Shown here piece by piece: positions 6,757-25,191 of a stretch of DNA of 43,427 nt. The notes below the pieces were generated by a model. That model made no database searches. It worked only from the letters and a program-made list of their open reading frames with translations, and had not been told where the DNA came from. This DNA is from an uncultured Candidatus Saccharibacteria bacterium. GTDB taxonomy: Bacteria; Patescibacteriota; Minisyncoccia; Phycocordibacterales; UBA9973. How positions within the stretch are numbered: position 1 is the first letter of the stretch; the number at the start of each line of letters is the position of its first letter. The stretch spans positions 1 to 43,427 of the forward strand of contig CAZXCD010000005.1 in assembly GCA_964638985.1 (NCBI GenBank), given 5' to 3'. The translations under genes and the position numbers were made by a program.

Positions 6757-6783
6757 TCTCAAATTCTGTGCTATATTTGATTA

Positions 6784-10377: not shown

Positions 10378-11222
10378 AAGCAAAAAAATCATTGGGGCAA
10401 AATTTTTTAAAGTCGGAGATTGCGCTCAAGAAGATTGTTGAAGCGGGAGAAATAAAAAAGAGCGACGTGATTTTGGAAATCGGCCCAGGGAAAGGAGCGC
10501 TCACAGAAAAACTGTTAGCTTCTGGCTGTCAGCTTGTAGCTGTGGAGAAAGATCGAGATTTATATGAATTATTGAAAGATAAATTTCAGAAAGAAATTGC
10601 GGAAGGAAAATTAGTTTTGTTAAACGAAGACATACTTAAATTTCAAATTTCCAATTTCAAATTTCCAAAATATAAAATCATCGCCAACATTCCTTACAAC
10701 ATCACCGGCGCGATTTTAAAAAAATTTTTAACAGAAAAAAATCAGCCGGAAAGAATGATTTTGATGGTCCAGCGCGAAGTGGCGGGGAGAATAATCGCCC
10801 GCGATGGGAAGGAAAGCATTCTTTCAATGTCAGTCAAGGCTTACGGGGAACCAAAAATGATAATGAAGGTAAATAAAAGATATTTCTCTCCAGCGCCCAA
10901 AGTTGATTCCGCGATAATTGAAATAAAAAATATTTCGAGAAAAAATTTTCCTCCCCTCCTTGTGGAGGAGGGGGCAGGGGGTGGTGATTCAAAGAGATTA
11001 CCACCTCGCCCTTCGGGCACTCCTCCTCAAAAAAGAGGAGAGGGGACATTCGAGGAAAAATTTTGGGAAATAGTAAAAACCGGCTTTGCGCACAAACGTA
11101 AAAAACTTTCTTCAAACCTAAAAGGATTAATTTCTCCCCAAAAACTGTCTTCGGTAAACCTAGGTGACAAAAGGGCGGAAGATTTGGCTCTTTCAGACTG
11201 GATAAACCTAGCTAAAAACTAG
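10374..11222 (+). CDS. rsmA: 16S rRNA (adenine1518/1519-N6)-dimethyltransferase RsmA/KsgA
   Basis: LGQNFL, EIGPGKGALT, ANIPYNIT, and C-terminal FAHKRKKL. The ATGA start overlaps the upstream stop. Confidence 0.9.
   Translation: MKAKKSLGQNFLKSEIALKKIVEAGEIKKSDVILEIGPGKGALTEKLLASGCQLVAVEKDRDLYELLKDKFQKEIAEGKLVLLNEDILKFQISNFKFPKYKIIANIPYNITGAILKKFLTEKNQPERMILMVQREVAGRIIARDGKESILSMSVKAYGEPKMIMKVNKRYFSPAPKVDSAIIEIKNISRKNFPPLLVEEGAGGGDSKRLPPRPSGTPPQKRGEGTFEEKFWEIVKTGFAHKRKKLSSNLKGLISPQKLSSVNLGDKRAEDLALSDWINLAKN
10950..11046 (+). repeat. GC-rich multi-hairpin element, family B, in-frame in rsmA
   Basis: CCTCC-TTGT-GGAGG, GGTGG..CCACC and CCTCCTC-A6-GAGGAG hairpins. Encodes PLLVEEGAGGGDSKRLPPRPSGTPPQKRGEG. 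About 80% identical by eye to the copy at 24122-24216. Confidence 0.8.
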
Positions 11223-11308
11223 TTTACTTTCAAAATAGGTGGTACAATAAAAGCATAATTAAAGAAATTTGGTTAAAACACAAAAGAGTAATTCTCATCT
11301 GCTCGGCG

Positions 11309-12190
11309 GTGCTGTTTCTTGTTGTTCTTTTTTTACTAAAAAACACTTCAATACTTAAAAACACAGTCAATTTTGTAAGGGGTGGAGGGGAAGGATTGAC
11401 TTATAATACCGTAGCGATAGGGGACCTGGTGAACAAAGACACAGACAAGGATGGAATCTTGGATTGGGAGGAGCCTCTGTGGGGTCTTGACCCGACAAAA
11501 ATAGAAACCACTCCAGGAGTTCCGGATAGTTCTGTAATAAAAAAATTAAGAGCTGAACAAGGTTTTGAAATAAGCACCACAGAAGGAATCGTTGAAAATT
11601 ATTCAGAAAATCTTACGGAGACAGAGAAATTTTCTAGGGAATTTTTTTCAACTGCAGCCGCCCTAAGCCAAAGCGGGGTTACTGACCAGGAAACAATGGA
11701 CCAAATTGGTGTCGCTTTGGCAGAAAAAATACAAAATTCCTCTCCAAGAAAAATATTTCAACTTTTGGACATAAAAGCTATAAATAACAACTCTGCCCAA
11801 ACAATAGAAACTTATGCTAGCTCTTTAAATAATGCCTATGTTAAAAATCCAATAAAAGGAAACGTTGTGGACATATTGGAAAAATTCATAATTGATGAAA
11901 ACAACGTTGATGGGAGTGTTTTAGAAGAACTGGATCCAATTATCAAGCAAACACAGAATTTGATAAACGAGGTACTAAAAATAAATGTACCGGAATCCCT
12001 TACCCTGCAACATTTGGACTTTTTAAATGCAATGGAAAGAGTTGTGGAAAATATAAGCAATATAAGGCTTTATAACAGTGACGTTGTTTTAGCGTTGGGG
12101 GGAATAAGCCAATATGACAAAAATACTATTCTTTTGGAATCTGCTCTAAAAAATCTTTCAGACGCAATTAGCCAAAAATTGAATAGTTAA
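11309..12190 (+). CDS. hypothetical envelope protein with a thrombospondin type-3-like Ca-binding motif
   Basis: Hydrophobic N-terminus and DTDKDGILDWEE motif. The GTG start is doubtful (see findings). Confidence 0.55.
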   Translation: MLFLVVLFLLKNTSILKNTVNFVRGGGEGLTYNTVAIGDLVNKDTDKDGILDWEEPLWGLDPTKIETTPGVPDSSVIKKLRAEQGFEISTTEGIVENYSENLTETEKFSREFFSTAAALSQSGVTDQETMDQIGVALAEKIQNSSPRKIFQLLDIKAINNNSAQTIETYASSLNNAYVKNPIKGNVVDILEKFIIDENNVDGSVLEELDPIIKQTQNLINEVLKINVPESLTLQHLDFLNAMERVVENISNIRLYNSDVVLALGGISQYDKNTILLESALKNLSDAISQKLNS

Positions 12191-12230
12191 ACAAAAAATC
12201 GTATAATAAAGTGGTAAAAATACAAAAAAA

Positions 12231-14708
12231 ATGATTTTCAAAAATAAAAAAAGTCAAAAAGTTATATCTGGTATTCTTATCATTTTAATATTATTACCAG
12301 CTGTTTTATTTTCCGATCCCAAAAAGGTAGAAGCAGCTTGGTGGTCTACTTTTTTGACAGATATTGAGACAGCAATTACATCGACATTTGGTGGAGTAAC
12401 AGCTGGATCAACCGTAACAAATACAGGCATCTCTATAAAAAATGTGGCAAAAGAAGTTTATAAACAGGTTCTTATGGCTATTGCCAGAAGAGCATTACAA
12501 GAAGTAACTAAAGGTGTTGTGGGCTGGATTAATTCCGGCTTTCATGGGAGTCCACTTTTCCTAGAAAATCCAGGTTCTTTCTTTGAAGATATAGTAAAAT
12601 CTGAGGTGAAAACAGTAATAGATATGGTCGGATATGATTCTGTCAGATTCCCTTATGGAAAAGATTTTGCCATAAACACGATTATGGCTTATAAACAAAC
12701 CACTGAAAACAATTTGGCATATTCTATGAGCAAAGTTATGTCAGACCCCGTGCAACTAAATAATTATCGGAACAATTTCAATGTCGGTGGGTGGAACGCA
12801 TTTTTGGTAAATACACAATATCCTCAAAATAATTATTTGGGTTTCCAGATGCTCATGAATGAAACTCTTGCAGAGAAAATATTATCATCACCTTCAGCCA
12901 ACAATGCAATAACAAAAGTAAAAGAAACACTCCAGCAAGGACAGGGTTTCTTGTCTCCGGAAAAGTGTATGGATCCTGGTACAAAGTATAATGACACCAT
13001 GGCAAATGCGTGGCAGAGACCAAGTTTTAATACTACCGAATTACAAAAATGGTACGCCGAGGAAGGAAAAAAGATTGCAAATTCAAACAAAGATGACAAA
13101 ACAAAACAAACAGAAATGAGGCTTTTGGCCGAACAATATGAAATACAAGTTAAGAAACAAAAAGCTGAGTGGGCAAAAAATAACACTTGTAAAAACTTAG
13201 TCGCCACAACTCCAGGTTCTGTGGTAGCAGATCAAATAAAAATTAATTTGGGCTCAAGTGTGCGCCAACAAGAACTTGCCGCTGCGCTGGGTAATAGCCT
13301 TTCTGCTATTTTTGATGCTTTAATAAATAAATTTATTGATGAGGGATTGAATGCTTTGGCAAGTAATAAAAACTCAAAACCAGTGGAAGATGAGTGGAGT
13401 TATGACGGTTTGAAACTTGGTAGCCCTGCCGACGGAAATAATTCATCTTGGGACTCTGGGCCTGATGAAGAAATTATTTTGGATAAATTTAAAAAACAGT
13501 TGCATGGTAAAACCATTGTCACGAAAGTTAATTTGGAGACTGGTGAAGAAAAAACCACCGAAGAAGTAGGAAACACCAACACCAAAGAAATTACCAAAGG
13601 CACATACATTCCCGGCGACATCGCGAACACAGAAACTGAAATAATACTATTGGAGTTGATTCCAAAAATAATCAACGATAGAGGCGATACAGGCCCTGGT
13701 ATTGTGCAATTGACACAAACACTTGATCAGTGCATGCCTGGACCAGACAAAAATTGGGAAAATAGATTGAAAGATGAGGAATCCAGAGTAGGCAAGTCCC
13801 TTTTAATGGAAAATAACGTAGATAGCGACGAACTTAAAGCAAAAGCGGCTGCTGATGCATTACGTGAATTAAAATTTGCAGCAAGCTCCTTTAAAGACTG
13901 GCTAACCACAAAAATAATAAACGAACTCCCCGGCTCAATACTTTATTTGGATGCTATAAAATCCATAGATGATTTTCCTCAGCAAACGAAAGAAGCTATA
14001 GACAGAAGGTCTGCAAAACTTCAAACACTTGCAAGACTAAAAGCTATAGCCGGAGACGAAAAAAGTATCCAAAAAACAGGGCTAGCGGCAATATCATCTC
14101 AACCAATATCTGGATCCAATGAAGAGAAAACTCTAGTTTTATTAAAAAAACAATATAATACACTTGTGGCTTCTATATCTTCCTCGGCTAGTGTGGAAGA
14201 AACAAGGGCTGAGTTAGATTTCTTAAAAGATCGTTCTTCGAATATAAAAAATCTGATTACTCAATGTAAAACTGAAGTAGAAAGCGCCGGTTGGCAAATC
14301 ACAAAAGAAGAAAAAGGGATTTTAGAGAATACCAACGATGATACCTACGGGGCACCTGTAGCAAGAAGAATAGAAAGAGAACAAAACGGCACCACAGAGA
14401 CAGAAAAATTTTGCTCTATTCCTATAGTAAGCGGTTATAGCCATGGAGAAATAATTAGGGAAGATTCTTCAAACAGAGGGAAGGATTTCACGTTTAGAAA
14501 TGAAAACAATAAACTAGGAGACGAGGGATATCAAGACATTCCGATTGTGAACGCAAAAAACGTGTATGGGGATATAACATGCACAGGGACATGTAGCTGG
14601 TTGGGTGGAAGTGGAACAGACAAACGAGTAAGTATTAAAATAGACTGCAACACAATATTCAAATCCAACATAATAGATTATACACACGCCGGAGATCCAG
14701 CAAACTAA
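12231..14708 (+). CDS. large secreted or membrane-anchored hypothetical protein (825 aa), T4SS-like cluster
   Basis: N-terminal signal-anchor (ILIILILLPAVLF..KKVEAA). Long uninterrupted ORF with a Cys-containing C-terminal region. Confidence 0.6.
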   Translation: MIFKNKKSQKVISGILIILILLPAVLFSDPKKVEAAWWSTFLTDIETAITSTFGGVTAGSTVTNTGISIKNVAKEVYKQVLMAIARRALQEVTKGVVGWINSGFHGSPLFLENPGSFFEDIVKSEVKTVIDMVGYDSVRFPYGKDFAINTIMAYKQTTENNLAYSMSKVMSDPVQLNNYRNNFNVGGWNAFLVNTQYPQNNYLGFQMLMNETLAEKILSSPSANNAITKVKETLQQGQGFLSPEKCMDPGTKYNDTMANAWQRPSFNTTELQKWYAEEGKKIANSNKDDKTKQTEMRLLAEQYEIQVKKQKAEWAKNNTCKNLVATTPGSVVADQIKINLGSSVRQQELAAALGNSLSAIFDALINKFIDEGLNALASNKNSKPVEDEWSYDGLKLGSPADGNNSSWDSGPDEEIILDKFKKQLHGKTIVTKVNLETGEEKTTEEVGNTNTKEITKGTYIPGDIANTETEIILLELIPKIINDRGDTGPGIVQLTQTLDQCMPGPDKNWENRLKDEESRVGKSLLMENNVDSDELKAKAAADALRELKFAASSFKDWLTTKIINELPGSILYLDAIKSIDDFPQQTKEAIDRRSAKLQTLARLKAIAGDEKSIQKTGLAAISSQPISGSNEEKTLVLLKKQYNTLVASISSSASVEETRAELDFLKDRSSNIKNLITQCKTEVESAGWQITKEEKGILENTNDDTYGAPVARRIEREQNGTTETEKFCSIPIVSGYSHGEIIREDSSNRGKDFTFRNENNKLGDEGYQDIPIVNAKNVYGDITCTGTCSWLGGSGTDKRVSIKIDCNTIFKSNIIDYTHAGDPAN

Positions 14709-14756
14709 ACCAGAAAGATTCGCGTACCGTGTTAGAGATAGAATTAAACAAGTAAA

Positions 14757-17201
14757 ATGAAAAATTTAGCCAAAAAACTAGTCCCATATTTATTTATACT
14801 CATCGCGCTAGTTGGGTTGTTTGGGTGGGCAGAGAAAGCGGAAGCCGAAAGCCCAGATGACCGGGGAGATTGTAAAATCACTACAGAATCTGCTTCGGGT
14901 AATACACCTCCCAGAATTGAAACTAAGGAAAATATAACAAGAGCGCAATGCACCGCGCTGAAGACTCCAACGGCAAGTACAGTATTTACTTTGAAAGTAG
15001 CAGTAGATGATATTAAAGGGATGTGTACGACTAATACCACAGTAACCGAGGATACAAAAAAACATTGTGAAGACGGCGGGGGGCAGTGGAGGCTAAAAGG
15101 AACTGATAATAATCCAGATGCAGCACCAGAAGCAGAGGATTCGGAAAAATCTGCGTTTGAAAACAAACTAAATTTAACTTGCAAAAACCCAATTAGTAAT
15201 TTTTCAGGATGTTTTCTACAAGTTTTCTATTGGCTTCTTCACGACATCCCAGCGCTTCTACTGGGAATTTCTGGTTATTTTTTTAATATCTTAATATCTG
15301 TGTCACTAGATGGTACTTTATTAAAAAGTGCTTTTGTAGGAGAAGCTTGGGGGGTGGTAAGAGACCTTTCAAACATTTTCTTTATACTTATTCTCCTCTA
15401 TATTGCTGTCAAAATTATTGTGGATTTAGAAGGACACGAGGCAAAACAAATGATAGTAAAAGTTGTAATTATGGCTTTGCTTATAAACTTTTCTATGTTT
15501 TTTACTCAAGTCATCATTGACACATCAAACGTTTTAGCTCTAGTTTTCTACAACAAAATGAAGGTAAGTACCGTAAACCCTGACGGTAACGAAAGACAGT
15601 ATTCTTCAATAAAGAACGAAAAAGATATTTCGGGTGGCTTGGTGGCCTCGTTTGATCCCACGACAAAGATACTGAGCTCGGGCTTTTTTGAACAAATAGA
15701 AAAAAAATATGACGCTAATGGAAAGATTATAGTCATAAATGGACAAGAACAAAGACAGCCCATAGGATTTGGAACAAAACTGGCAATCATTGTTCTTTCT
15801 GGCGCCATTATGATTGTCGCGACTTATGTTCTATTTGTCTCGGGGTTCTTCTTCCTTGGAAGATTGATTGAACTATGGACTTTAATTATTTTCTCTCCAT
15901 TCGCCTTTATGTCTTATACTGTACCTAAACTATCAGAGATGGAAGAATTGGGTTGGAAATCATGGTTTAAACGCTTAATCAGCTCGGCCTTTATGGCGCC
16001 GATTTTTATGTTCTTTTTGTATTTTATATTTATGTTAATAGCCTCTCCATTATTTAAAAATCTTATGCCGGAAAGCACTGAAACAACTGGCGTGGCTGGG
16101 TGGATAAAAATTATATTAAACGTGCTGTTGCCTTTTATATTTATTTGCGTACTTCTTCTGAAAGCAAAAGACTATGCGAAGAAAGGTTCCGGACAATTTG
16201 GGGAGGCGGTGATGAGTGTAGCCAAGGTCGCGGGTGGACTCGCCTTGGGTGCCGCAACGGGCGGGGTTTCAATAATGGGAACTGGAGCGGTTGGAAGTTT
16301 GTCTTCTGGAGTGGCAAGTAGTAAATTCCTAAATGAAAACCAAAATAAAAAAGGGTTGGGGGGTATGGCTGCTAGGGTGGCCCTAAAAACCGCAGACTAT
16401 GGTTCTAAGGCTTCATTTGATGTTAGAAAAATAGCTGGTGTCGGGGCTTTAGCTAAGATGGGCGGAATAAATCTAGAATCAGTAAAAGCAATCGGACTAG
16501 GATCTAAAGATGGTGGATATATACAAAGAAGAAAGGAACAAGTAGCAAGTAGGCAGAAGAGGGCAAAAGAGCTTGAGATAAGAGAAGATGAGCCATTAAA
16601 ACAAGCTTTAAATAAAGCAGAAGCAGACCTGCAAAGTCTTTTGAGTGACAACCATAACGTAATCGAGTCGCTAGATAAAGACATAGAAAAGAAAAGACAA
16701 GAGGTAAGCGATGCAGAGAAAAAATTCAACTCGGCTAAGGGTACTGCTAATGAAGGGGCTGCGAGAACAGCGTTAGATTTAGCAAACACTAAATTAGACT
16801 TCGCAAAAAACAACAAGCAGGATTTCCGAACAGGACAACAGTATAGAACTTATGATAGGGCAGGAAATTTTGTGCTCCAAACTGGAACTGGTCAAAATAT
16901 TAACGACCTAGAGGAAAACAAAAAACATGCGGCTCATGACATACAAAAAGAAAACAGGGCAAGAAAATGGGCTTATGCTGAAAGAATAGTAAAATGGAGT
17001 CCGGGATTTTATAAAGCCGACAGAGAAGCTGCTCATAAAATACGAATGGAAGCAAAAATAGAAGATACAGGAAAAGATCATGGAGGTGGTGGTGGAGGGC
17101 ATGCCCCAGCGGCAGCTCACCCTGCACCCCCGGCTCATGGCCCAGCTCCAGCAGTTGCACCTGCCGCCCCAGCTCATGGTCCCGCCCCCCACCAACCATA
17201 A
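14757..17201 (+). CDS. VirB6/TrbL-like polytopic membrane protein with coiled-coil and His/Pro/Ala-rich tail
   Basis: Signal peptide, Cys-pair N-terminal module, multi-TM block (about aa 150-500), K/E-rich coiled coil, and tail GGGGGGHAPAAAHPAPPAHGPAPAVAPAAPAHGPAPHQP. It lies next to the VirB3/VirB4-like genes. Confidence 0.55.
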   Translation: MKNLAKKLVPYLFILIALVGLFGWAEKAEAESPDDRGDCKITTESASGNTPPRIETKENITRAQCTALKTPTASTVFTLKVAVDDIKGMCTTNTTVTEDTKKHCEDGGGQWRLKGTDNNPDAAPEAEDSEKSAFENKLNLTCKNPISNFSGCFLQVFYWLLHDIPALLLGISGYFFNILISVSLDGTLLKSAFVGEAWGVVRDLSNIFFILILLYIAVKIIVDLEGHEAKQMIVKVVIMALLINFSMFFTQVIIDTSNVLALVFYNKMKVSTVNPDGNERQYSSIKNEKDISGGLVASFDPTTKILSSGFFEQIEKKYDANGKIIVINGQEQRQPIGFGTKLAIIVLSGAIMIVATYVLFVSGFFFLGRLIELWTLIIFSPFAFMSYTVPKLSEMEELGWKSWFKRLISSAFMAPIFMFFLYFIFMLIASPLFKNLMPESTETTGVAGWIKIILNVLLPFIFICVLLLKAKDYAKKGSGQFGEAVMSVAKVAGGLALGAATGGVSIMGTGAVGSLSSGVASSKFLNENQNKKGLGGMAARVALKTADYGSKASFDVRKIAGVGALAKMGGINLESVKAIGLGSKDGGYIQRRKEQVASRQKRAKELEIREDEPLKQALNKAEADLQSLLSDNHNVIESLDKDIEKKRQEVSDAEKKFNSAKGTANEGAARTALDLANTKLDFAKNNKQDFRTGQQYRTYDRAGNFVLQTGTGQNINDLEENKKHAAHDIQKENRARKWAYAERIVKWSPGFYKADREAAHKIRMEAKIEDTGKDHGGGGGGHAPAAAHPAPPAHGPAPAVAPAAPAHGPAPHQP

Positions 17202-17214
17202 TAGTTAAAAACTT

Positions 17215-17715: not shown

Positions 17716-17726
17716 TAAAAAACAAT

Positions 17727-18479
17727 ATGGAAAACACAACTGATTTATTACAAATAAAAATTGAAAAAGCAAAAGCACAGTTGCCAGAGAATACATTGAA
17801 TGCTATCAATGCCGTCCCTTGGCAAGCCATCATATTACAGATGAGGGAGACAAAAGGATATAGCTTTGAACAATTAGGCGAATTAGAGACTGAAACAGAA
17901 TTATTACTCTGTGACCTTTTAAATCCGGAAAATTACCAAAAAGAATTGAAGGACCGCATGAAACTTTCAGACTCTCAGGTGAATGAATTAGTAAATGAAA
18001 TGAATAAACTTGTTTTTGTGAAAATAAAAGAAGAATTAATTAGAGGCACTGGAAATAAAAAAGTCTCCACAAACGAAACCAAAAATGCTCAGAATATCCC
18101 TATTAAAACCGCGCTAAGTGACAAAGAGCAAGAAAGAGACACCCAGATCCTAAAATCCGCCGGGATTGAGATTATTCCGGACCTGCCCGCAGCACCTTCA
18201 GCACAGCTGATGCAGGCGGGAAAGTTGGAAATAAGTTCTCCTCTTGAGGAGTACTCCACCCATAAAGTGGAGGGAGGTGGAAATGCATCCACCCCGGCTA
18301 AGGCCACCCCTCAAGAGGGGAATATTCATCCAATCTTGACTCAAAAATTGTCCGGCTTTGTGAAGAATAGTGTCGTGGAGACAGACCATTCTTTGCATAA
18401 TATTTCTCCAAAAGAATCCGAGAACACTCCCGGTGGTAATGTAAAAAAAATAGACCCCTATCGCGAGATTCCAGAATAA
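17727..18479 (+). CDS. hypothetical protein (paralog of ORF 17215)
   Basis: N-terminal similarity to the preceding ORF; carries a four-hairpin GC-rich insert. Confidence 0.5.
   Translation: MENTTDLLQIKIEKAKAQLPENTLNAINAVPWQAIILQMRETKGYSFEQLGELETETELLLCDLLNPENYQKELKDRMKLSDSQVNELVNEMNKLVFVKIKEELIRGTGNKKVSTNETKNAQNIPIKTALSDKEQERDTQILKSAGIEIIPDLPAAPSAQLMQAGKLEISSPLEEYSTHKVEGGGNASTPAKATPQEGNIHPILTQKLSGFVKNSVVETDHSLHNISPKESENTPGGNVKKIDPYREIPE
18238..18320 (+). repeat. four consecutive short GC-rich hairpins, in-frame in ORF 17727
   Basis: CTCCTC..GAGGAG, CTCCAC-N7-GTGGAG, GGTGG-N8-CCACC, CCCCTC..GAGGGG. Encodes SPLEEYSTHKVEGGGNASTPAKATPQEG. Confidence 0.7.
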
Positions 18480-18493
18480 GTTATAATTAACAA

Positions 18494-18919
18494 ATGCAGT
18501 TCAAGGTACCTCAATTTTTAGACATAGAGGACAAAATATTCGGCCCCTTTACTTTTAGGGAGTTTGCTTATTTGGCCGGTGGCGCAGGTCTGTGCTTCGT
18601 CCTTTACAAATTGCTTGGGCTTATTTTCGGAGCCATCCCTATTTTAATTATCGCCGGGTTTTCCATCGCCCTGACTTTCTACAAACCAAACAACAAACCC
18701 TTCATCAATATGATAGAGGCGGGATTTAAATATTTTACCCAAAACAAGCTTTATATTTGGAAAAAGCATGCGGGCAAAACCTCACCTCCAGCCCCTCTCC
18801 CGAGAGGAGAGAGTGGCGAAAAGCCGGGTGAGGTGGGTTCAAAATTAAACGGGAGCAGACTCCGAGACTTGGCGTGGAGTCTGGACGTTTTGGATTTAAG
18901 TAAACAAAAAAAGAGTTAA
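18494..18919 (+). CDS. PrgI-like (VirB3-analogue) T4SS membrane protein
   Basis: N-terminus MQFKVPQFLDIEDKIFGPFTFREF followed by two TM helices, as I recall for the PrgI family. It sits immediately upstream of the VirB4-like genes. Confidence 0.6.
   Translation: MQFKVPQFLDIEDKIFGPFTFREFAYLAGGAGLCFVLYKLLGLIFGAIPILIIAGFSIALTFYKPNNKPFINMIEAGFKYFTQNKLYIWKKHAGKTSPPAPLPRGESGEKPGEVGSKLNGSRLRDLAWSLDVLDLSKQKKS
18779..18834 (+). repeat. GC-rich hairpin element, family C, in-frame in the prgI-like gene
   Basis: Terminal inverted repeat ACCTCACC...GGTGAGGT encloses CCTCTCC-CGAGA-GGAGAGA. Encodes TSPPAPLPRGESGEKPGEV. Confidence 0.75.
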
Positions 18920-18923
18920 TTTT

Positions 18924-19562
18924 ATGGCCTTAAACGCAAAAGCAACACAAGAATTCATACCAATCAAAGAAATACGCGATGGAATCATCGTACTAAAAGG
19001 GGGCGAACTCCGAGCAATTGTGCTTGCCAACTCGGTCAACCTATCCTTAAAATCGTCCGATGAACAAAAGGCAACCATTCTTCAATTCCAGAATTTTTTA
19101 AACACTTTGGATTTCCCTGTACAAATCTCGGTCCAGTCCAGAAGGCTAGACATCAGGCCGTACCTTCTGCTTTTGGAAAACAGAATCAAAGTGCAAAGCG
19201 AGCCCTTGATTAAACTGCAGACGAAAGAGTATATAGAATTCATCAGAAACTTTACCGAATCGGTAGCCATCATGACAAAAAGTTTCTTTATCGTGATACC
19301 ATATTCTCACACTGTGTTTAAATCCGATTCTGGGATATTGGGGAGATTGTTTTCTAAAAAAAGCAAACAAGAGGCGCAAGCGCTAAAACAAATAGACTTT
19401 GAGGAAAAGAGATCTCAGTTGGAAGAAAGAGTGGCGGTCATCCAGCAAGGATTGTCCCGTTGCGGTATAAATTCTGCTCAGTTGGACACAGAAGAGGTAG
19501 TGGAAGTATTTTATAAAGTTTTCAACCCGGGAGAATTGGAGGGGAAAATTAAGATAGAGTAA
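18924..19562 (+). CDS. VirB4 N-terminal-domain-like protein (separate ORF)
   Basis: ATQEFIPIKEIRDGIIVLKGGELRAIVLANSVNLSLKSSDEQKATILQFQNFLNTL...FYKVFNPG resembles, from memory, the first ~200 aa of Gram-positive VirB4-class ATPases (Tn916 Orf16 / PrgJ type). Confidence 0.5.
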   Translation: MALNAKATQEFIPIKEIRDGIIVLKGGELRAIVLANSVNLSLKSSDEQKATILQFQNFLNTLDFPVQISVQSRRLDIRPYLLLLENRIKVQSEPLIKLQTKEYIEFIRNFTESVAIMTKSFFIVIPYSHTVFKSDSGILGRLFSKKSKQEAQALKQIDFEEKRSQLEERVAVIQQGLSRCGINSAQLDTEEVVEVFYKVFNPGELEGKIKIE

Positions 19563-19566
19563 TATT

Positions 19567-21417
19567 ATGGACTTTTTTAAAAAATTATTAGGTGGGAAAA
19601 AAGCGACGGAAGAAAAGGAAGTGAGAGCTTCTGTCTTGGCGGTGATGCCAGAAGAAATTTATCAGTCCGCCACCCTGGAACTCCAAGATGTCATCGCACC
19701 ATCAGCTTTAAAAATCGCCTCCAAATCCATAAGTCTGGGAGATAAAATTGCTCGCACTTTTTTTATTATTTCTTACCCTAGATTCCTGACGGACAATTGG
19801 TTTTCTCCCATAATCAACTTAGATAAGGTTTTTGATATTTCCATTTTCATCCATCCGATAGACACCTCCCTAGTACTCCGACAATTCCAGAAAAAAGTCG
19901 CCGAAGTACAGAGCCAGATAAGTGTGCGCGAAGCGAAGGGAATGGTGCGCGACCCGATGCTTGATACCGCTTATCAAGATTTGGAAGGGCTCCGCAACAA
20001 TTTGATTCAAGCGCAAGAAAAAATGTTTGACGTGGGCATTTACATTACAATTTATGCCGACAACGAACTGGAACTTTTCAAAATAGAAAATGAGATAAAA
20101 TCAATCCTGGAATCAAAGCTCATCTACATCAAACCGGCGCTCTTCCAACAGGAAGATGGTTTCAAGAGCGTTATCCCCATAAACACAGACCTGCTCGGCA
20201 TTCATCAGAAGTTGAATTCTGAACCGCTTAGTAGCGTCTTCCCATTTATCTCCTTTGACCTGACCTCCGACAAAGGTATACTCTACGGCATCAACAGACA
20301 CAACTCCAGTCTGGTCATCTTTGACAGATTTTCTTTGGAAAATTACAACTCAGTAACCTTCGCCAAGTCCGGCTCCGGAAAATCTTACGCAACAAAATTG
20401 GAAATCTTAAGATCGCTAATGTTTGACGTGGATGTCATTGTGATAGACCCGGAGAGGGAATATGAATTCTTGTCGGAGGCCGTGGGGGGAAGATATTTTA
20501 ATATTTCTCTTTCTTCAGACCACCACATCAATCCTTTTGACCTGCCCATCCCGCACGAAGATGAAACAGCCGAGGATGTTTTGCGTTCAAACATAATAAA
20601 CTTGGTAGGACTTTTCAGATTGATGTTGGGCGGACTGACTCCCGAAGAAGATTCAATGGTGGACCGAGCTATTTCCGAAACTTACGCCATGAAAGATATC
20701 ACTCCCGAGTCTGATTTCTCAAACATTGAGCCTCCGCTTCTCTCAGACTTTGAGTTGGTGCTCGGAGGAATGGACGGAAGCGATTCAATAGTCACCAGGT
20801 TGGCGAAATATACGCGCGGTTCTTGGGCGACATTCTTAAACAGACCATCCAATGTGGATATCAACAAAAAATTCGTGGTATTTTCCGTCCGTGACATGGA
20901 GGACGAACTGAAACCAGTAGCCATGTACATCATTATGCATTACATCTGGAATACGATAAGAAAAAATCTAAAAAAACGCTTACTGGTCGTAGACGAGGCC
21001 TGGTGGATGATGAAATCCGAAGACACCGCGTCATTCTTGTACTCTATCGCCAAGAGAGGCAGAAAATATTACCTGGGTCTTTCCACCATCACCCAAGACG
21101 CGGCAGACTTTATGAAGTCTCCATATGGTGTGCCTATCATTACCAACTCTTCCATTCAGCTTCTCCTCAAACAATCGCCCACTACTATAGATATTTTGCA
21201 AAAAACCTTCAACCTTACAGATGAAGAAAAATATTTGCTCTTGGAATCCGGACTCGGGGAGGGCATCTTCTTCGCGGGGTTAAAACACGTCGCCATAAAG
21301 GTTATTTCTTCTTACACAGAAGACCAGATAATCACCTCAGACCCTTCACAGATACTTTCAAATAGAAAAGCCAAGGAAGAGCAGGAACGGGCGGAGACTG
21401 AAAGAACCTCACCCTAG
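19567..21417 (+). CDS. virB4: VirB4-like T4SS ATPase (central and C-terminal ATPase part)
   Basis: Walker A FAKSGSGKSYATK, Walker B LLVVDEAWWMM, and the IAPSALK....FFIISYPRFL pattern typical of VirB4/TraC-like proteins. Confidence 0.85.
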   Translation: MDFFKKLLGGKKATEEKEVRASVLAVMPEEIYQSATLELQDVIAPSALKIASKSISLGDKIARTFFIISYPRFLTDNWFSPIINLDKVFDISIFIHPIDTSLVLRQFQKKVAEVQSQISVREAKGMVRDPMLDTAYQDLEGLRNNLIQAQEKMFDVGIYITIYADNELELFKIENEIKSILESKLIYIKPALFQQEDGFKSVIPINTDLLGIHQKLNSEPLSSVFPFISFDLTSDKGILYGINRHNSSLVIFDRFSLENYNSVTFAKSGSGKSYATKLEILRSLMFDVDVIVIDPEREYEFLSEAVGGRYFNISLSSDHHINPFDLPIPHEDETAEDVLRSNIINLVGLFRLMLGGLTPEEDSMVDRAISETYAMKDITPESDFSNIEPPLLSDFELVLGGMDGSDSIVTRLAKYTRGSWATFLNRPSNVDINKKFVVFSVRDMEDELKPVAMYIIMHYIWNTIRKNLKKRLLVVDEAWWMMKSEDTASFLYSIAKRGRKYYLGLSTITQDAADFMKSPYGVPIITNSSIQLLLKQSPTTIDILQKTFNLTDEEKYLLLESGLGEGIFFAGLKHVAIKVISSYTEDQIITSDPSQILSNRKAKEEQERAETERTSP

Positions 21418-21484
21418 CCCTCTCCTGGAAGGAGAGGGGGAAATTAGTCCCTTCCCATTCCAGGGGAAGGCGGGGGATGAGGTT
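21405..21484 (+). repeat. GC-rich hairpin element, family C (full copy), overlapping the virB4 stop codon
   Basis: Perfect terminal inverted repeat AACCTCA...TGAGGTT. Inner hairpins CCCTCTCC-TGGAA-GGAGAGGG and CCTTCCC-N7-GGGAAGG. The virB4 TAG lies inside the element. Confidence 0.8.
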
Positions 21485-21516
21485 AGCATTAGGAAATGCT
21501 ATAATAATCACAAGTT

Positions 21517-22503
21517 ATGCAATTCAGATTTTTACCTTCATATTTAATAGCAATGCTTTTGTTGCTAGGAATCTTTTTACCTTCTAGCGCACTGGCTGTT
21601 TCTTCCAGTAGTATTTTGGTTGATGTGGTCCCAGAAAACCCGGCTCCAAATGAAAATGTAAGCATAAGCCTAAGCAGCTATGCCAGCAATCTAGACAGTG
21701 TTTTAATAAATTGGTCGGTAAATGGCAAGACCATGCTGTCTGGAATCGGCAAAAAATCTTTTTCCCTTAAAGCTCCAGATGCCGGAGGAGAAACAAGCAT
21801 CGTAGCTTCTATTTCTTTGCCGGATGGCACCATGGACAAGAGAATAATGATCCGGCCGTCTGTGATGGCGCTTCTTTGGCAAGCCAATGACTCTTATGTT
21901 CCGCCATTTTATCGTGGCAAGGCCATGCCGACAGTGGGAAGTGAAATAAAAATAGTGGCAATTCCGGAAATTAAAAACGGTAATCAAACGGTAAATCCTA
22001 AAAACATTGTCTATGCCTGGAAAAGAGATTATACCAACAAGCAAGACAGCTCTGGCTATGGCAAGAGTTCTTTTACTTATGTGGATGACTACTTAGAAGA
22101 CTCCAGCACCATAGGAGTGACCGCCACCACCACAGACCAAAAGTATTCTTCTTCCGCAAGCATCAATGTGCAGGCGGGGGAACCAAAAATTTTATTTTAT
22201 ACGAAGGATGCAACTTTGGGAACACTTTGGGAAAAATCTCTCTCTGACGGACACCAAATACAAGGCAATGAAATTATTGAAGCTGCGCCATATTTTATTT
22301 CCCCTAAAGAAATCAGAATCCCGACCCTCGTATTCAACTGGTTCATTAATGATTACCAAATCGCCGTCCCTTCTTATAAGAAGAATATTATGCCACTCGC
22401 GGTACAATCTGGAACATCGGGAACGTCAATAATAAAACTGAAAATTGAGGACACTTATAAAATATTCGTAGACGCAAGTAAGGAGCTTAAGGTAGAATTT
22501 TAA
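21517..22503 (+). CDS. secreted hypothetical protein (beta-rich), T4SS-like cluster
   Basis: Signal peptide (LLLLGIFLPSSALA). TATAAT lies just upstream, after an AGCATT/AATGCT hairpin. Confidence 0.55.
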   Translation: MQFRFLPSYLIAMLLLLGIFLPSSALAVSSSSILVDVVPENPAPNENVSISLSSYASNLDSVLINWSVNGKTMLSGIGKKSFSLKAPDAGGETSIVASISLPDGTMDKRIMIRPSVMALLWQANDSYVPPFYRGKAMPTVGSEIKIVAIPEIKNGNQTVNPKNIVYAWKRDYTNKQDSSGYGKSSFTYVDDYLEDSSTIGVTATTTDQKYSSSASINVQAGEPKILFYTKDATLGTLWEKSLSDGHQIQGNEIIEAAPYFISPKEIRIPTLVFNWFINDYQIAVPSYKKNIMPLAVQSGTSGTSIIKLKIEDTYKIFVDASKELKVEF

Positions 22504-22511
22504 TACCCAGT

Positions 22512-23804
22512 ATGATTTTATTAAATCAAATGAAAAAACTTTTTATTTACATTTCAATACTAATAGTAATAACCGGAATATTTAGTCCAATATTTAAAAC
22601 AGAAGCGGCAGATCCTCAGATGGGGACTTGTACCTACACGTATGAATCCTATGGTAAACCTGTTATTGAAAAAACTCGTACCATAAAAGATAATTGTAAA
22701 GGACCAGATAGGGTGTGGGAACCGGATACTGCTCCATCAGCAGACACAGCACTAGGAACTTGTACCTACACGTATGAATCCTATGGTACTCAAAAATTTG
22801 AACTTACTCGCACCTTTAAAACTAATTGCACTGGAGCAGACAGAACCTGGAAGGAATCAACGCTGGCAGAATTTCAAGCAGAAAAAGCTGCCAAGGAAGG
22901 CACTGGCGGTGAAAAAGATGATGGTTTTGTGGGACCTCCAGATCCATATTATCATTTTTTAGCCCCATTACCTTGCGAACCAGGAACTCCCGATTGTGAC
23001 AGCAGTGGAAAACTTATAACCTTTGATCCTAGTGGAGAAAACAAAATAGGTGGGTATTTGAATGTAATGATACGAATATTCATTGGTATGTGCGCCGTGT
23101 TGGCGGTGATAATGATTGTCGTGGGGGGCATAGAATATATGACGAGTGAGTTGATATCAAATAAAGAAAATGGCAAACACCGGATTACCGGCGCAATCTT
23201 CGGACTTGTACTGGCCTTAGGAGCCTGGACGCTTCTAAATACAATCAATCCTGATTTATTGAAGACAGATTTAACAAGTTTGCAAAATGTAGAGGTGGTA
23301 GTAGATCTAGGTGGTGAAGGAAATACTCCACTCAATGAAACAACGATCCAAAATGATTTAAAAGGTGTCGGCATTGTTTGCCCTAAAGATGGTGGGGCTG
23401 GAGCACTTTCTGGAATTGCCCAATCTTATGTTGGACACTCAACTTATAGTATGGAAAAAAGAAATACCACAAGTGGAGGGATAGCTTATGTTGATTGTTC
23501 TTCTTATTTGAGTCAGGTCTATGTATGTGCGGGGCTTAGAAACCCTGGAGGTACCTCTCTTGGAATATTTGGCTCAGGAAGTACCCCTGTCACAAGCATT
23601 AGTACAGACGGAACAACAATAAATGGTGTGGCTCTAAAAATTGGTGACTTAATCGGATGGACCGCGGGTGGAAAAGAAAAATATGGCCATGTTATGATGT
23701 ATGTGGGTGGCGGAAAAATGATTGACGCACAAGGACAAGGTGGTGTAGCAATAAGGGCGGTAAGTTCCTACGCAGCAAGAATAAAATTTGTTAAAAAACT
23801 TTAA
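22512..23804 (+). CDS. fusion protein: tandem Cys modules + TrbC/VirB2-like pilin hairpin + NlpC/P60 cell-wall hydrolase
   Basis: Signal peptide. Two 44-aa repeats (GTCTYTYESYG...NC.G.DR.W). Two TM helices (IGGYLNVMIRIFIGMCAVLAVIMIVVGG / ITGAIFGLVLALGAWTLL). NlpC/P60 Cys (VDCSSYLSQVY) and His (GHVMMYVGGGKMIDA). Confidence 0.7.
   Translation: MILLNQMKKLFIYISILIVITGIFSPIFKTEAADPQMGTCTYTYESYGKPVIEKTRTIKDNCKGPDRVWEPDTAPSADTALGTCTYTYESYGTQKFELTRTFKTNCTGADRTWKESTLAEFQAEKAAKEGTGGEKDDGFVGPPDPYYHFLAPLPCEPGTPDCDSSGKLITFDPSGENKIGGYLNVMIRIFIGMCAVLAVIMIVVGGIEYMTSELISNKENGKHRITGAIFGLVLALGAWTLLNTINPDLLKTDLTSLQNVEVVVDLGGEGNTPLNETTIQNDLKGVGIVCPKDGGAGALSGIAQSYVGHSTYSMEKRNTTSGGIAYVDCSSYLSQVYVCAGLRNPGGTSLGIFGSGSTPVTSISTDGTTINGVALKIGDLIGWTAGGKEKYGHVMMYVGGGKMIDAQGQGGVAIRAVSSYAARIKFVKKL
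22626..22788 (+). repeat. intragenic tandem duplication (exact 31-mer ACTTGTACCTACACGTATGAATCCTATGGTA at 22626 and 22758, period 132 nt)
   Basis: Read directly. Corresponds to the duplicated 44-aa Cys module. Confidence 0.85.
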
Positions 23805-23808
23805 TTTT

Positions 23809-25191
23809 ATGTCAAAAAGAAACTTTATACTTTTAACAATAATCTTAACCATCATCGTGCTAGCAGTATTGGGATTTTTGTATTCACAGCGCAACGTGAC
23901 GACCCCCGGGGAAGACAGCTCCGGCACAAATTTCATTTCGCAATTTAACCCATTCGGGAGCGATAAGCCCACCCCCACTCCACCTGGAACAACCCCCACC
24001 GATGTTTCTGGTTACGAGCCTGGACCAGAACAAGAAGAAGTGAAGTTAAAAAAAGTTTCCAGTATGCCTGTAGCCGGTTTCACTGTCTATCCTAAAGAAA
24101 GATTGAAAGAGGTAGCAGTAGCTCCCCTCCTTGTGGAGGAGGGGGTTGGGGGTGGTGCTAGCTCTACAACACCACCTCCCCCTTCGGGTACTCCTCCTCA
24201 GAAAGGAGGAGAGGGATCCAAACCCACCCCACCAGCAACAGAGTTTGCATCTGCTCTCCGATATGTAGATAGGGTCACAGGAAATATTTACCAAACTTTC
24301 GCGGATAAAATAGAAGAGAGGAGGTTTTCAACCACAACGATACCTAAAGTATATGAAGCATTCTTTGGCAACAAAGGGACTTCTGTGGTGATGCGATATT
24401 TGAAAGAAGATAGTACAACCATTACGACTTTTGTCGGCAATCTCCCGAAAGAGCTACTCGGAGGGGACTCTACCGAGGACAATGAAATAAAGGGGGTGTT
24501 CTTACCGGAAGATGTGCGGGATGTAAGTCTATCCCAAGATGCCGGAAGCATTTTTTATCTGTTTAATGTTGGAGAAAACATCGTGGGTACGACTTTAGGC
24601 TTAACCACCAATAAAAAATCCCAAATTTTTGATTCACCTTTTACCGAATGGCTGTCCCGGTGGCCGAATAACAAACTAATCACTCTCACCACCAAACCCG
24701 CCTCCGGAGTTCCCGGATACGTGTATGGGATAGACCTGCTAAACAACAAAAATTTACGCCAAATCTTCGGTAATATAAACGGGTTGACTACACTCACGAG
24801 CCCTAATGGCAAATTGATTCTTTATGGAAATGATGGTTTATCTCTAGGTATTTATCACACGGACACAAAAGTATCGGAATCGCTTGGAATAAAAACTCTG
24901 CCGGAAAAATGTGTTTGGGGAATGGCTAGTGATGTAGTTTATTGTGGAGTACCTGGATCCATAGCTGGGGCGGGTTATCCTGATGCCTGGTATCGCGGAG
25001 AAGTATCTTTCGTAGATCAAATTTGGAAAATAGATATAACTTCCGGAAATGCCACCCTCCTTGTAGACCCGATGACAACAGAAGGAGGGGAGGAAGTGGA
25101 TAGTATAAAACTTGCGCTAGATGCAGACGAAAATTATTTATTTTTTGTAAACAAAAAAGATTCCTTTCTTTGGGAACTTAAATTAAAATAA
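23809..25191 (+). CDS. membrane-anchored hypothetical protein, possibly beta-propeller-like
   Basis: ATG 23809 gives a signal-anchor (MSKRNFILLTIILTIIVLAVLGF). The ORF-track TTG start at 23788 overlaps the upstream gene. Carries a family B insert. Confidence 0.55.
   Translation: MSKRNFILLTIILTIIVLAVLGFLYSQRNVTTPGEDSSGTNFISQFNPFGSDKPTPTPPGTTPTDVSGYEPGPEQEEVKLKKVSSMPVAGFTVYPKERLKEVAVAPLLVEEGVGGGASSTTPPPPSGTPPQKGGEGSKPTPPATEFASALRYVDRVTGNIYQTFADKIEERRFSTTTIPKVYEAFFGNKGTSVVMRYLKEDSTTITTFVGNLPKELLGGDSTEDNEIKGVFLPEDVRDVSLSQDAGSIFYLFNVGENIVGTTLGLTTNKKSQIFDSPFTEWLSRWPNNKLITLTTKPASGVPGYVYGIDLLNNKNLRQIFGNINGLTTLTSPNGKLILYGNDGLSLGIYHTDTKVSESLGIKTLPEKCVWGMASDVVYCGVPGSIAGAGYPDAWYRGEVSFVDQIWKIDITSGNATLLVDPMTTEGGEEVDSIKLALDADENYLFFVNKKDSFLWELKLK
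24122..24216 (+). repeat. GC-rich multi-hairpin element, family B, in-frame in ORF 23809
   Basis: Collinear with the rsmA copy. Encodes PLLVEEGVGGGASSTTPPPPSGTPPQKGGEG. Confidence 0.8.

Follow-up and report, generated by a model that had tools for sequence, protein, structure and literature searches.

The window analysed here, a stretch of 43,427 nucleotides from a groundwater bacterium of the Candidatus Nomurabacteria (genome of 0.67 Mb, 40% GC), raises the question of why two genes with otherwise unrelated products contain segments of about 95 nt that encode nearly the same 31-residue peptide. The preliminary description had located these segments, judged them by eye to be about 80% identical and collinear, noted that they open with an identical 24-nt block and read both in the same frame. 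All of this holds: the coordinates are correct (Table 1), a blastn-short search of the whole 666-kb genome aligns the segments over 94 nt at 82.98% identity (E = 5e-11) and without gaps within the element, the block CTCCCCTCCTTGTGGAGGAGGGGG is exact in both (10951-10974 and 24122-24145), and the quoted peptides, encoded in the same frame of the element, are identical in 24 of the 31 residues. Furthermore, the two segments belong to one repeat family (hereinafter family B), with additional copies in this genome and elsewhere in the genus, both inside other ORFs and between genes, in either orientation.

It had further been proposed that the differences cluster in the loop of a central hairpin (GGTGGTG...CACCACC) with the stems preserved, and that this pattern reflects selection on DNA or RNA structure rather than on the peptide. 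The differences between the two copies indeed fall in the central loop, which is the part that varies most between paralogs, and in hairpin loops and spacers. However, the suggested scoring of compensatory stem changes found none in the pairwise alignment, and one difference that falls in the small GCCC/GGGC hairpin, G...C to C...T, is non-compensatory; the two copies alone are therefore unable to prove structural selection. Moreover, the central GGTGGTG...CACCACC is not an independent stem, and the structure is a pair of triplex-type units rather than three plain hairpins.

The building block of the element is a unit of about 33-47 nt that consists of a pyrimidine arm, a loop of 3-9 nt, the complementary purine arm, a spacer of 2-4 nt or, alternatively, a GC mini-hairpin of 12-14 nt, and, last, a G/T strand in which the purine arm is repeated in exact mirror order, with G opposite G and T or A opposite A. 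Family B combines two such units, X and Y, in inverted orientation, head-to-head in the window and tail-to-tail elsewhere. Because the window units are head-to-head, their mirror ('third') strands, GGTGGTG and CACCACC, face each other across a loop of 10-13 nt. The tail-to-tail arrangement resembles a circular permutation of the head-to-head one; an origin from an excision circle was considered and rejected in favor of the simpler explanation that two units can be joined either way.

Table 1. Features of the two family B copies and their host genes (positions in the window)
Feature	Position	Strand	Details
Host gene 1, rsmA/ksgA (16S rRNA dimethyladenosine transferase)	10374..11222	+	RrnaAD, Pfam PF00398, 185 bits
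Family B copy 1	10950..11046	+	Two triplex-type units joined head-to-head within the rsmA reading frame; peptide PPLLVEEGAGGGDSKRLPPRPSGTPPQKRGEG
Unit X, copy 1	10953..10985	+	Found by the strict unit detector
Pyrimidine arm, X copy 1	10953..10960	+	CCCCTCCT; followed by loop TGTGG
Purine arm, X copy 1	10966..10973	+	AGGAGGGG; followed by spacer GCAG
Mirror strand, X copy 1	10978..10985	+	GGGGTGGT
AT-rich central loop, copy 1	10987..10999	.	ATTCAAAGAGATT; between the two facing mirror strands
Unit Y, copy 1	11000..11045	-	Reads as a unit on the minus strand; perfect stem of 6 bp, under the 7-bp cut of the strict detector
Mirror-strand complement, Y copy 1	11000..11007	+	ACCACCTC (plus strand)
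Mini-hairpin, Y copy 1	11008..11018	+	GCCC-TTC-GGGC (plus strand)
Arms, Y copy 1	11020..11028 / 11035..11045	+	CTCCTCCTC / GAGGAGAGGGG (plus strand)
Host gene 2, predicted conserved membrane-anchored protein (ORF 23788)	23788..25191	+	ATG at 23809
Family B copy 2	24122..24216	+	Head-to-head pair as in copy 1, in frame in ORF 23788; encodes PLLVEEGVGGGASSTTPPPPSGTPPQKGGEG
Unit X, copy 2	24124..24156	+	CCCCTCCT / AGGAGGGG / GGGGTGGT; found by the strict unit detector
Unit Y, copy 2	24171..24211	-	Minus strand: CTCCTCCT TTCTG AGGAGGAG, spacer TACCCGAAGGGG, mirror strand GAGGTGGT; found by the strict unit detector

The mirror relationship is a property of the entire genome. Perfect GC-rich pyrimidine/purine hairpins yield 158 strand-readings genome-wide, 66-68 of which have, no more than 40 nt 3' of the purine arm, a strand that mirrors the whole arm exactly, compared to 12 for a direct (non-mirror) copy, 2 for the upstream side and a mean of 13 for shuffled partners (standard deviation 3.2, maximum of 24 among 500 shuffles). 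More than 20 arm types are represented, each with its own mirror strand; the covariation is far above the controls. A sliding sub-window version of the mirror versus direct comparison that allowed one mismatch was uninformative (96 vs 82), and the exact full-arm test was used instead. Of the 68 strict units in the genome, 43 lie within open frames 150 aa or longer. Among the three possible frames, nearly all coding copies use the only open one, which is probably read through as a loop rich in Pro, Gly and Glu, as judged from the conservation of the frame; it follows that translation filters the insertions that survive. The possibility that the C4 copies mark a replication origin was discarded: the TGTGGATAA boxes are scattered, with 27 genome-wide, and the locus is a pilus/pilin cluster.

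The unit resembles BoxC/PIT/TMECO, the intrastrand triplex motifs of E. coli and other bacteria (Bergler 1992; Hoyne et al. 2000; Holder et al. 2015, PMC4666352). Both follow the class II purine motif, namely pyrimidine arm, loop, purine arm, loop and G-rich mirror strand, and both are GC-rich and dispersed in many copies, often as inverted pairs of two slightly different units, with stems that are more conserved than the loops and loci that are often rearranged between relatives. When compared to the ITxF definitions (Holder et al. 2015), in which class II stems are 6-15 nt long with at most one mismatch and loops are 1-6 nt, unit X has a stem of 8 bp and loops of 5 and 4 nt, whereas unit Y has a stem of 8 bp (copy 2) or 6 bp (copy 1) and a second loop of 12-14 nt that holds the GC mini-hairpin and is longer than published triplex definitions. 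A strand that would give the antiparallel reverse-Hoogsteen triads (G*G-C, A/T*A-T) lies 3' of the purine arm in both units, GGGGTGGT mirroring AGGAGGGG and GAGGTGGT mirroring AGGAGGAG. The 8-nt family B arms (CCCCTCCT/AGGAGGGG/GGGGTGGT) lie outside the TMECO consensus, CCCTCNCCC N3-6 GGGNGAGGG N3 GGGNGAGGG, but other families of this genome, such as AGGAGAGGG/GGGTGAGGT and GGGGGAGGG/GGGTGGGGG, come closer to it. TMECO is reported to be always intergenic and to lack a mobility gene, whereas in this 0.67-Mb patescibacterial genome most copies interrupt genes without shifting the frame, and there is a cognate nuclease gene (see below). The family B segments are very probably copies of one composite GC-rich DNA repeat made of triplex-type units and constrained at the DNA level, as their architecture and divergence suggest; the mirror rule itself could instead reflect recognition by a protein.

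In RsmA, the insert occupies the linker that joins the Rossmann domain to the C-terminal helical domain, at the break in the alignment to PDB 3tqs_A (residues ~193/201). The comparison with RsmA orthologs that had been recommended shows that most of these lack the insert, the empty site being a constant segment of 30 aa; the RsmA of genomes G000 and G049 carries a net addition of 28 codons at this site, free of stops, and in G022, G020, G006 and G013, a different unit follows the same Phe codon. The second host, ORF 23788, is conserved in 95 of the 101 genomes of the genus and has no match in Pfam or NCBIfam. Its assignment as a membrane-anchored envelope protein is plausible given the N-terminal TM helix and the P/T-rich stalk. 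The insert falls within this hypervariable stalk, after the TM helix; in a sister species, this exact site holds another pair of units, and other orthologs contain other units or none. Units come and go, and take each other's place, at fixed permissive positions within genes. No target-site duplication was seen at either copy. A 16-nt near-repeat that flanks the rsmA copy (TTCGAGAAAAAATTTT / TTCGAGGAAAAATTTT) was rejected as such a duplication, with its halves in different frames (offset 115); both halves are present in insert-free orthologs (the SRKxF and EEKFW codons) and are therefore native sequence.

Rickettsia palindromic elements (RPEs) are short palindromic repeats that are inserted in frame in ORFs, including housekeeping genes, where they add surface loops, and that also occur between genes. 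Family B shares with them the in-frame insertion that is probably read through in one frame without a stop, as in rsmA, but differs in composition and architecture, RPEs being about 100-150 bp long, AT-richer and limited to Rickettsia and relatives. To our knowledge, RPEs have neither a mirror (third) strand nor a partner enzyme.

The distribution of family B extends far beyond Patescibacteria, to Bacteroidota, Alphaproteobacteria and viral contigs (10 stretches on 8 contigs), with at least 119 loci that fit a pattern specifying 24 bases, against about 0.1 expected by chance. In other phyla, the unit is mostly intergenic, with 14 of 54 in long frames as opposed to 7 of 9 in Patescibacteria. 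Genes for DUF559, a Vsr-like PD-(D/E)XK nuclease, are bracketed by units, and the arm type matches the nuclease subtype. All five DUF559 genes of G000 are flanked by units when inspected by eye, and the strict detector finds units on both sides of three of the five, compared to 0.12% at random. For the genus, 19 of 30 DUF559 genes have a strict unit within 150 nt; all five C2-like DUF559 genes are accompanied by family B arms as opposed to none of the other 15 (Fisher p ~6e-5). Every one of the six cross-phylum loci that hold a DUF559 homolog has it directly bracketed by the unit, and in E. coli, the only DUF559 gene, ycjD, has TMECO in the adjoining spacer. The D...ExDGxxH motif is intact in all five DUF559 proteins, and the nearest solved relatives are 3hrl (E = 2.6e-18) and, weakly, 3r3p (E = 0.035). 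Among the papers searched, we found none that links DUF559 to triplex-type repeats or describes in-frame repeats in Patescibacteria.

The gene-less and gene-carrying elements share their ends. Tail-to-tail copies terminate in (A)TCACCACC...GGTGGTGA(T), similarly to the Y-[DUF559]-X arrangement of G021 (L185/L216) and to the C2 locus of G000, and a Bacteroidetes MAG (L078) contains a head-to-head version with the DUF559 gene inside. Terminal inverted repeats common to gene-less copies and a gene-carrying parent are also typical of MITEs, although here the parent encodes a nuclease rather than a known transposase. The G021 element is flanked by one 9-bp direct repeat (AATTTATTT), with no consistent target-site duplication across loci. 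We searched G049, G021, G009 and G022 for an orthologous empty site of the C2 DUF559 locus; the flank had no match in any of the four, so this locus is an accessory region. In being a small PD-(D/E)XK nuclease, DUF559 resembles the Vsr-like homing endonuclease I-Bth0305I (3r3p), a relative that is a proven mobile-element nuclease. Unlike homing endonucleases, DUF559 is encoded outside introns and inteins, has no known homing site and shows no co-conversion of flanks.

DUF559 belongs to the Vsr-like group of PD-(D/E)XK nucleases (PMC3424549), and it could alternatively be a sequence-specific mismatch-repair enzyme that protects its cognate GC-rich units from AT-biased mutation, or could simply be carried between units moved by another agent. 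This explanation would account for GC-rich elements that stay unchanged in a genome of 40% GC, and for the persistence of units in genomes that lack the gene: 27 of 61 genomes of the genus lack a DUF559 gene at E <= 1e-10, and one of these, G070, still has family B copies. However, T:G mismatch repair would neither protect AT-rich loops nor explain the replacement of a whole element at one site, and the way gene subtype and arm type travel together from phylum to phylum is consistent with a mobile module. We consider this explanation unlikely, even if it fares best among the alternatives.

The constraint on the element becomes apparent from orthologous copies. In four orthologous loci, there are 3 differences in 387 positions within the elements and 988 in 6688 in the flanks; at four-fold degenerate sites, 1 of 80 differs from the sister species in the four copies, compared to 195 of 489 (40%) elsewhere in these genes (p = 5e-15). 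In the distant orthologs of G094 and G044, the arms and mirror strands show 0/61 and 3/61 changes, whereas the loops and spacers show 6/30 and 7/30, near the flank level (22-36%). Thus, arms and mirror strands are nearly invariant at the DNA level, whatever the codon position, and, given the four-fold sites and the drift of only the loops, the constraint is on the nucleic acid and not on the peptide. The earlier proposal of structural selection accordingly stands with respect to the constraint, on evidence from orthologs rather than from the two paralogs, but the peptide is not wholly irrelevant.

The near-identity of these copies could instead stem from recent transfer or recombination between populations, or from parallel insertion, the element being a neutral recent passenger. 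Family B is clearly mobile between lineages, and between G000 and G049 even the loops and spacers are nearly identical (3 of ~110 sites), tighter than a structure-only constraint predicts, although the loops of paralogs differ. On the other side, at four independent loci, identity stops precisely at the edges of the element, and the adjoining 15 nt of flank are already 14% divergent, with no gradient around any of the four; homing-type co-conversion was rejected for the same lack of a gradient. Furthermore, in G094 and G044 the loops, but not the arms and mirror strands, have drifted to flank-like levels, a pattern diagnostic of constraint, which makes recent transfer quite improbable.

Another possibility, to which we give even less weight, is that the element acts in RNA, as a stable mRNA structure involved in pausing, stability or processing, with the DNA triplex irrelevant. 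Most copies are transcribed as parts of genes, and strong folds are predicted, with energies of -53 to -56 kcal/mol that are more stable than those of shuffled sequences (-55.7 kcal/mol, z -4.1; -53.1 kcal/mol, z -2.3). Nevertheless, the units show no strand bias relative to the host gene (17 in the same and 26 in the opposite orientation, p = 0.22), and an Rfam search of the window returned tRNAs only, with no match for the family B element. Furthermore, Watson-Crick pairing cannot produce the mirror relation, which is kept in partnerless solo and tail-to-tail units. Finally, purine-motif triplexes do not form in RNA (PMC4666352).

REPs are hairpins that lack target duplications, and a REP/BIME-type repeat moved by RAYT (IS200/IS605-like Y1) transposases, with DUF559 as a bystander, would agree with this feature and with the presence of ten Y1_Tnp (PF01797) genes in 0.67 Mb. 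Like REPtrons, the repeats described here are short hairpins that fall into several private families, each of which flanks a cognate enzyme gene of its own, with many gene-less copies and no target duplication. Unlike REPtrons, they bracket a DUF559 Vsr-like nuclease rather than an HUH/Y1 transposase, directly and with subtype-specific arm types, and include a mirror strand that is absent from REPs. Because the nearest strict unit lies 814-12607 nt from each of the ten Y1_Tnp genes, we rejected the RAYT link, which is very improbable. The least credible alternative is a protein module, that is, a linker peptide rich in Pro and Gly that the proteins have in common through descent or convergence and that is retained for its amino-acid sequence: nearly all coding head-to-head copies use one frame, and the peptide is hydrophilic, flexible and inserted in linkers, but copies are also intergenic and on either strand, where they would yield different peptides, four-fold sites are conserved, the loop-encoded residues vary freely in distant orthologs whereas the arms do not, and most orthologs lack the insert.

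Taken together, we favor as likely the reading that family B is a pair of triplex-type repeats that is constrained at the DNA level and travels with DUF559. Under a mechanism driven by DUF559, the gene-less copies would be non-autonomous derivatives of a selfish element that consists of the nuclease gene and its units; the nuclease may recognize or nick its cognate folded unit, repair synthesis may then copy units into new or occupied sites without target duplication, and selection would keep only in-frame insertions in linkers. This mobilization scheme is a serious candidate, with a chance that we put slightly short of even; DUF559 could also ride along with the units as a passenger, or target them, rather than drive them.

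BoxC/PIT/TMECO have been known since the 1990s, between genes only according to the surveys, with no known function, origin or means of spread. To this picture, the present analysis adds clean mirror-strand covariation, seen in over 20 sequence variants; proof from orthologs of DNA-level constraint on arms and mirror strands, silent codon positions of essential genes included; a unit common to Patescibacteria, Bacteroidota, Alphaproteobacteria and viral contigs; and DUF559 as a specific candidate partner, with the subtype matching the repeat type. Since ycjD adjoins TMECO in E. coli, the link between DUF559 and the repeats is testable in a laboratory strain. It is quite possible, though somewhat less likely than not, that DUF559 nucleases and their cognate triplex-type units form an unrecognized kind of selfish DNA that spans phyla and parallels REP/RAYT with a nuclease in place of the transposase, with BoxC/TMECO (together with ycjD) and family B as members. 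In that case, the gene-less copies of the gene-dense Patescibacteria would insert into coding DNA and endure there as DNA-constrained, in-frame loops that reshape even essential proteins. For genome annotation, the element accounts for many otherwise puzzling insertions rich in Pro and Gly, and for many differences in length, among the proteins of ultra-small bacteria.

The two copies of the family B repeat in the window lie where the preliminary description had placed them, one within rsmA and the other within ORF 23788 (ATG at 23809). As described, they are collinear and have an identical block of 24 nt in common; no gaps interrupt the element, and the overall identity is 83% over 94 nt (E = 5e-11 in a search of the whole genome of 666 kb). 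Both are in the same element frame within long open reading frames, and the two peptides, which had been read correctly, are identical in 24 of 31 residues. The first host is RsmA/KsgA (PF00398, 185 bits); the second contains a transmembrane helix at the N-terminus, is retained in 95 of the 101 genomes of the genus and produced zero matches in Pfam and NCBIfam searches.

Additional pieces of family B are present elsewhere in this genome (0.67 Mb, 41 contigs, ~40% GC), in two arrangements that resemble circular permutations of each other; the apparent permutation is resolved because the element divides into two units, X and Y. The final block of each unit (the mirror strand) is the purine arm written backwards, with A either changed to T or kept. 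Both units follow the intrastrand triplex layout of class II (purine motif) by which the BoxC/PIT/TMECO repeats are defined (PMC4666352), and we infer that they could form triplexes. In the window, X and Y are joined head-to-head, and the central stem GGTGGTG...CACCACC noted previously therefore consists of the two facing mirror strands. Two triplex-type units in head-to-head orientation make up family B; X and Y also occur tail-to-tail, for example, on contigs C4, C6 and C12. Two family B copies on C4 are separated by ~165 nt that include an N gap, with a pilin-like gene downstream, and each is followed by a similar 25-nt stretch with TGTGGATAA; a replication origin was considered here and rejected, the TGTGGATAA boxes being scattered, with 27 in the genome.

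Units of family B and associated features (window, or contig of the genome under study unless another source is named)
Feature	Location	Strand	Composition
Unit X		plus	CCCCTCCT - TGTGG - AGGAGGGG - GCAG - GGGGTGGT
Unit Y		read on minus	CTCCTCCT - loop - AGGAGGAG - TGCCCGAAGGGC - GAGGTGGT
Family B copy, rsmA	window 10950-11046		X + Y, head-to-head
Family B copy, ORF 23788	window 24122-24216		X + Y, head-to-head
Tail-to-tail pair of another unit family	window 21406-21482		AGGAGAGGG/GGGTGAGGT on minus strand, then CCCTTCCC...GGGGAAGG...GGGGGATGAGG
UvrD/PcrA-like helicase gene	window 8836-10377; loci L002-L010		insert region, e.g. ...DRPEDSILDGSLSECARSALPLDSS...
DUF559 gene of the window	window 36988-37287	minus
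Family A unit at its 3' end	window 36943-36983 (within 36901-37012)
Orthologous locus, sister species G049	L203 1781-1808
Tail-to-tail X + Y copies	C4 35951; C4 41268; C6 41439; C12 11255
Two neighboring family B copies	C4 35951-36260
Tandem coding repeats	C2 200-880
DUF559 gene (121 aa) between family B units	C2 40494-40850
Element with DUF559 gene, genome G021 (L185/L216)	G021 C4 ~6380-6840		ATCACCACC...Y-[DUF559]-X...GGTGGTGAT
Duplicate of ycjD 3' end, E. coli K-12	L224 3830-3975		GCCGAATATTCTCCAGCACCGTCTCC...

The mirror rule was assessed on all perfect GC-rich pyrimidine/purine hairpins of the genome with stems of at least 7 bp (158 strand-readings, every hairpin counting as pyrimidine-then-purine on both strands). 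An exact full-arm mirror strand was found within 40 nt 3' of the purine arm in 66-68 of the 158, compared with 12 for a direct copy, 2 for a mirror strand sought upstream and 13.0 +/- 3.2 (maximum 24 of 500) when a hairpin was combined with the downstream DNA of another one. More than 20 distinct arm sequences, two of these types from family B, each come with a matching mirror strand of their own, a covariation that is beyond the reach of Watson-Crick pairing. A strict census yielded 68 units, 43 of them in open frames of at least 150 aa, against 82% for random 45-nt segments. Between ORFs 19567-21417 and 21517-22503 of the window, the spacer contains two units of another family joined tail-to-tail, with the same arm types as those flanking the DUF559 gene on C4. 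Amplification of units inside a gene is evidently possible: a 995-aa ORF on C2, in a region with an assembly gap, carries tandem coding repeats of Y-type units, which read SPPSEGGVPEG... on one strand and PSGTPP on the opposite one.

RsmA is present in 40 of 41 related genomes, and most orthologs match residues 2-192 and 226-281 only and therefore lack the insert. Where empty, the site is a constant segment of 30 residues (ISRKxF, six residues, EEKFWEIV), compared with 58 residues in the genome under study and in G049; in G022, G020, G006 and G013, a different single unit (TSPQPSPYKGEG) is located right behind the same Phe codon. Aligned to PDB 3tqs, this position corresponds to the linker that connects the methyltransferase domain with the C-terminal domain. 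Further in-frame inserts are found elsewhere in RsmA orthologs (G006, G009, G010, G013, G018, G019, G021, G026), in particular around residues 93-98, with three extra ones in G006 (L008; e.g. NPASLKLRRA, SPFEGGE); RsmA is a repeated insertion target in this genus. The insert of ORF 23788 resides within a P/T-rich stalk that is hypervariable. Despite 89% identity, the G049 protein carries a different unit pair at exactly the same site, with homology restarting at the element borders, and other orthologs carry other unit families, unit X alone (G018) or none. The polymorphism of these two hosts shows that permissive sites acquire, lose and exchange elements as complete cassettes. No consistent target duplication was found at the insertion sites; a near-repeat around the rsmA copy was rejected as native sequence, and the sole candidate is a 9-bp direct repeat, AATTTATTT, just beyond AATCACCACC...GGTGGTGATT of the G021 element. 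The UvrD/PcrA-like helicase encoded upstream of rsmA contains a hypervariable insert region, different in every ortholog, that probably originated from the same kind of element.

Four family B copies (rsmA, C12 11255, C4 41268 and C3 27296) could be compared with their orthologs in G049. Over all sites, 3 of 387 differ in the elements versus 988 of 6688 in the flanks; at four-fold degenerate sites of the same genes, 1 of 80 differs inside the elements versus 195 of 489 outside (p = 5e-15). Recent recombination tracts could be invoked to explain such identity, but conservation stops at the element borders, with 14% divergence already in the first 15 nt of flank, which speaks against them. The pattern predicted in the preliminary description, structure kept while loops vary, was found once the appropriate comparison was made, with distant orthologs of the C7 copy: in G094 and G044, respectively, 0 and 3 of 61 positions differ in arms and mirror strands, 6 and 7 of 30 in loops and spacers, and the flanks diverge by 22% and 36%. 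The orientation of units relative to their host genes is unbiased (17 versus 26), as expected more of a DNA-level feature than of an mRNA motif. Family B is thus constrained at the DNA level. The peptide still acts as a filter: of the six frames, three are open, and almost every independent coding copy in the genus is read in the frame encoding PLL.EEG.GGG(N/D)S...GTPPQ.GGE rather than in the Trp/Arg/Leu-rich alternatives; the inserts would be translated by read-through. Between the genome under study and G049, the loops are nearly frozen as well (3 of ~110 sites), although paralogs differ chiefly in the loops; this near-freezing exceeds what a constraint on structure alone would predict. The finding is real and, in substance, the earlier interpretation was right; anatomy, mirror covariation, insertion polymorphism and DNA-level constraint are all shown.

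The unit is spread across phyla. A strict pattern of unit Y specifying 24 bases matched 19 of the 101 genomes of the genus (zero for the reversed-pattern control) and, across 185,579 species, at least 119 loci, compared with ~0.1 expected by chance (our own calculation). Among the matches listed are many Bacteroides species, with several copies per genome, Prevotella, Flavobacteriaceae and Muribaculaceae as well as Alphaproteobacteria, Saccharibacteria, Paceibacterota and Minisyncoccia; ten stretches were found on eight viral contigs (IMG/VR). The Bacteroides units are head-to-head too, with a central spacer of ~45 nt. Units reside in long open frames in 7 of 9 cases in Patescibacteria versus 14 of 54 elsewhere. 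By sequence, family B is a new variant among repeats of the BoxC/PIT/TMECO kind and resembles the Rickettsia palindromic element in its in-frame residence inside genes.

RAYT-like genes were dismissed as partners: the genome has ten such Y1_Tnp (RAYT/IS200-like) genes, unusually many for 0.67 Mb, and none of the ten is near units. The units are instead associated, in a cognate manner, with genes of DUF559 nucleases, one of which lies between family B units on C2. All five DUF559 genes of the genome are flanked by triplex-type units, every gene with an arm type of its own; with the strict detector, units are on both sides of three of the five, versus 0.12% expected. In the genus, DUF559 is present in 34 of 61 genomes, and a strict unit lies within 150 nt of the gene in 19 of 30 fetched loci. 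The arm type is predictable from the nuclease subtype: family B arms accompany 5 of 5 C2-like DUF559 genes (at least 60% identity) versus 0 of 15 others (p ~6e-5, our own calculation), C5-like genes are paired with GGGGAGG arms and C4-like genes with GGAGAGG arms. The gene-less tail-to-tail copies look like internal deletions of a Y-[DUF559]-X element such as that of G021. In the window, an additional family A unit is fused to the DUF559 gene at the 3' end. The orthologous G049 locus lacks this unit, which was therefore gained or lost beside the nuclease gene between the sister species.

In a Bacteroidetes MAG, the DUF559 gene is located between head-to-head units, and in all six cross-phylum loci with a DUF559 homolog, the gene directly abuts a unit. 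A 777-nt contig of Ancylomarina sp. (L102) contains two DUF559 copies with a family B-type unit in between, probably a collapsed repeat. For ycjD, the only DUF559 gene of E. coli K-12, the fabI-ycjD spacer contains a TMECO ~165 nt downstream of the gene; a degenerate unit overlies the stop codon of ycjD, and between the TMECO and the gene there is a duplicate of part of the 3' end, left over from either a second DUF559 copy or a rearrangement. No paper in the library searched links DUF559 to these repeats. The D...ExDGxxH motif is retained in all five DUF559 proteins of the genome, with 3hrl as the closest relative of solved structure and a Vsr-like homing endonuclease domain as a weaker match. 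Collectively, these associations suggest that the DUF559 nuclease may move or maintain the units.
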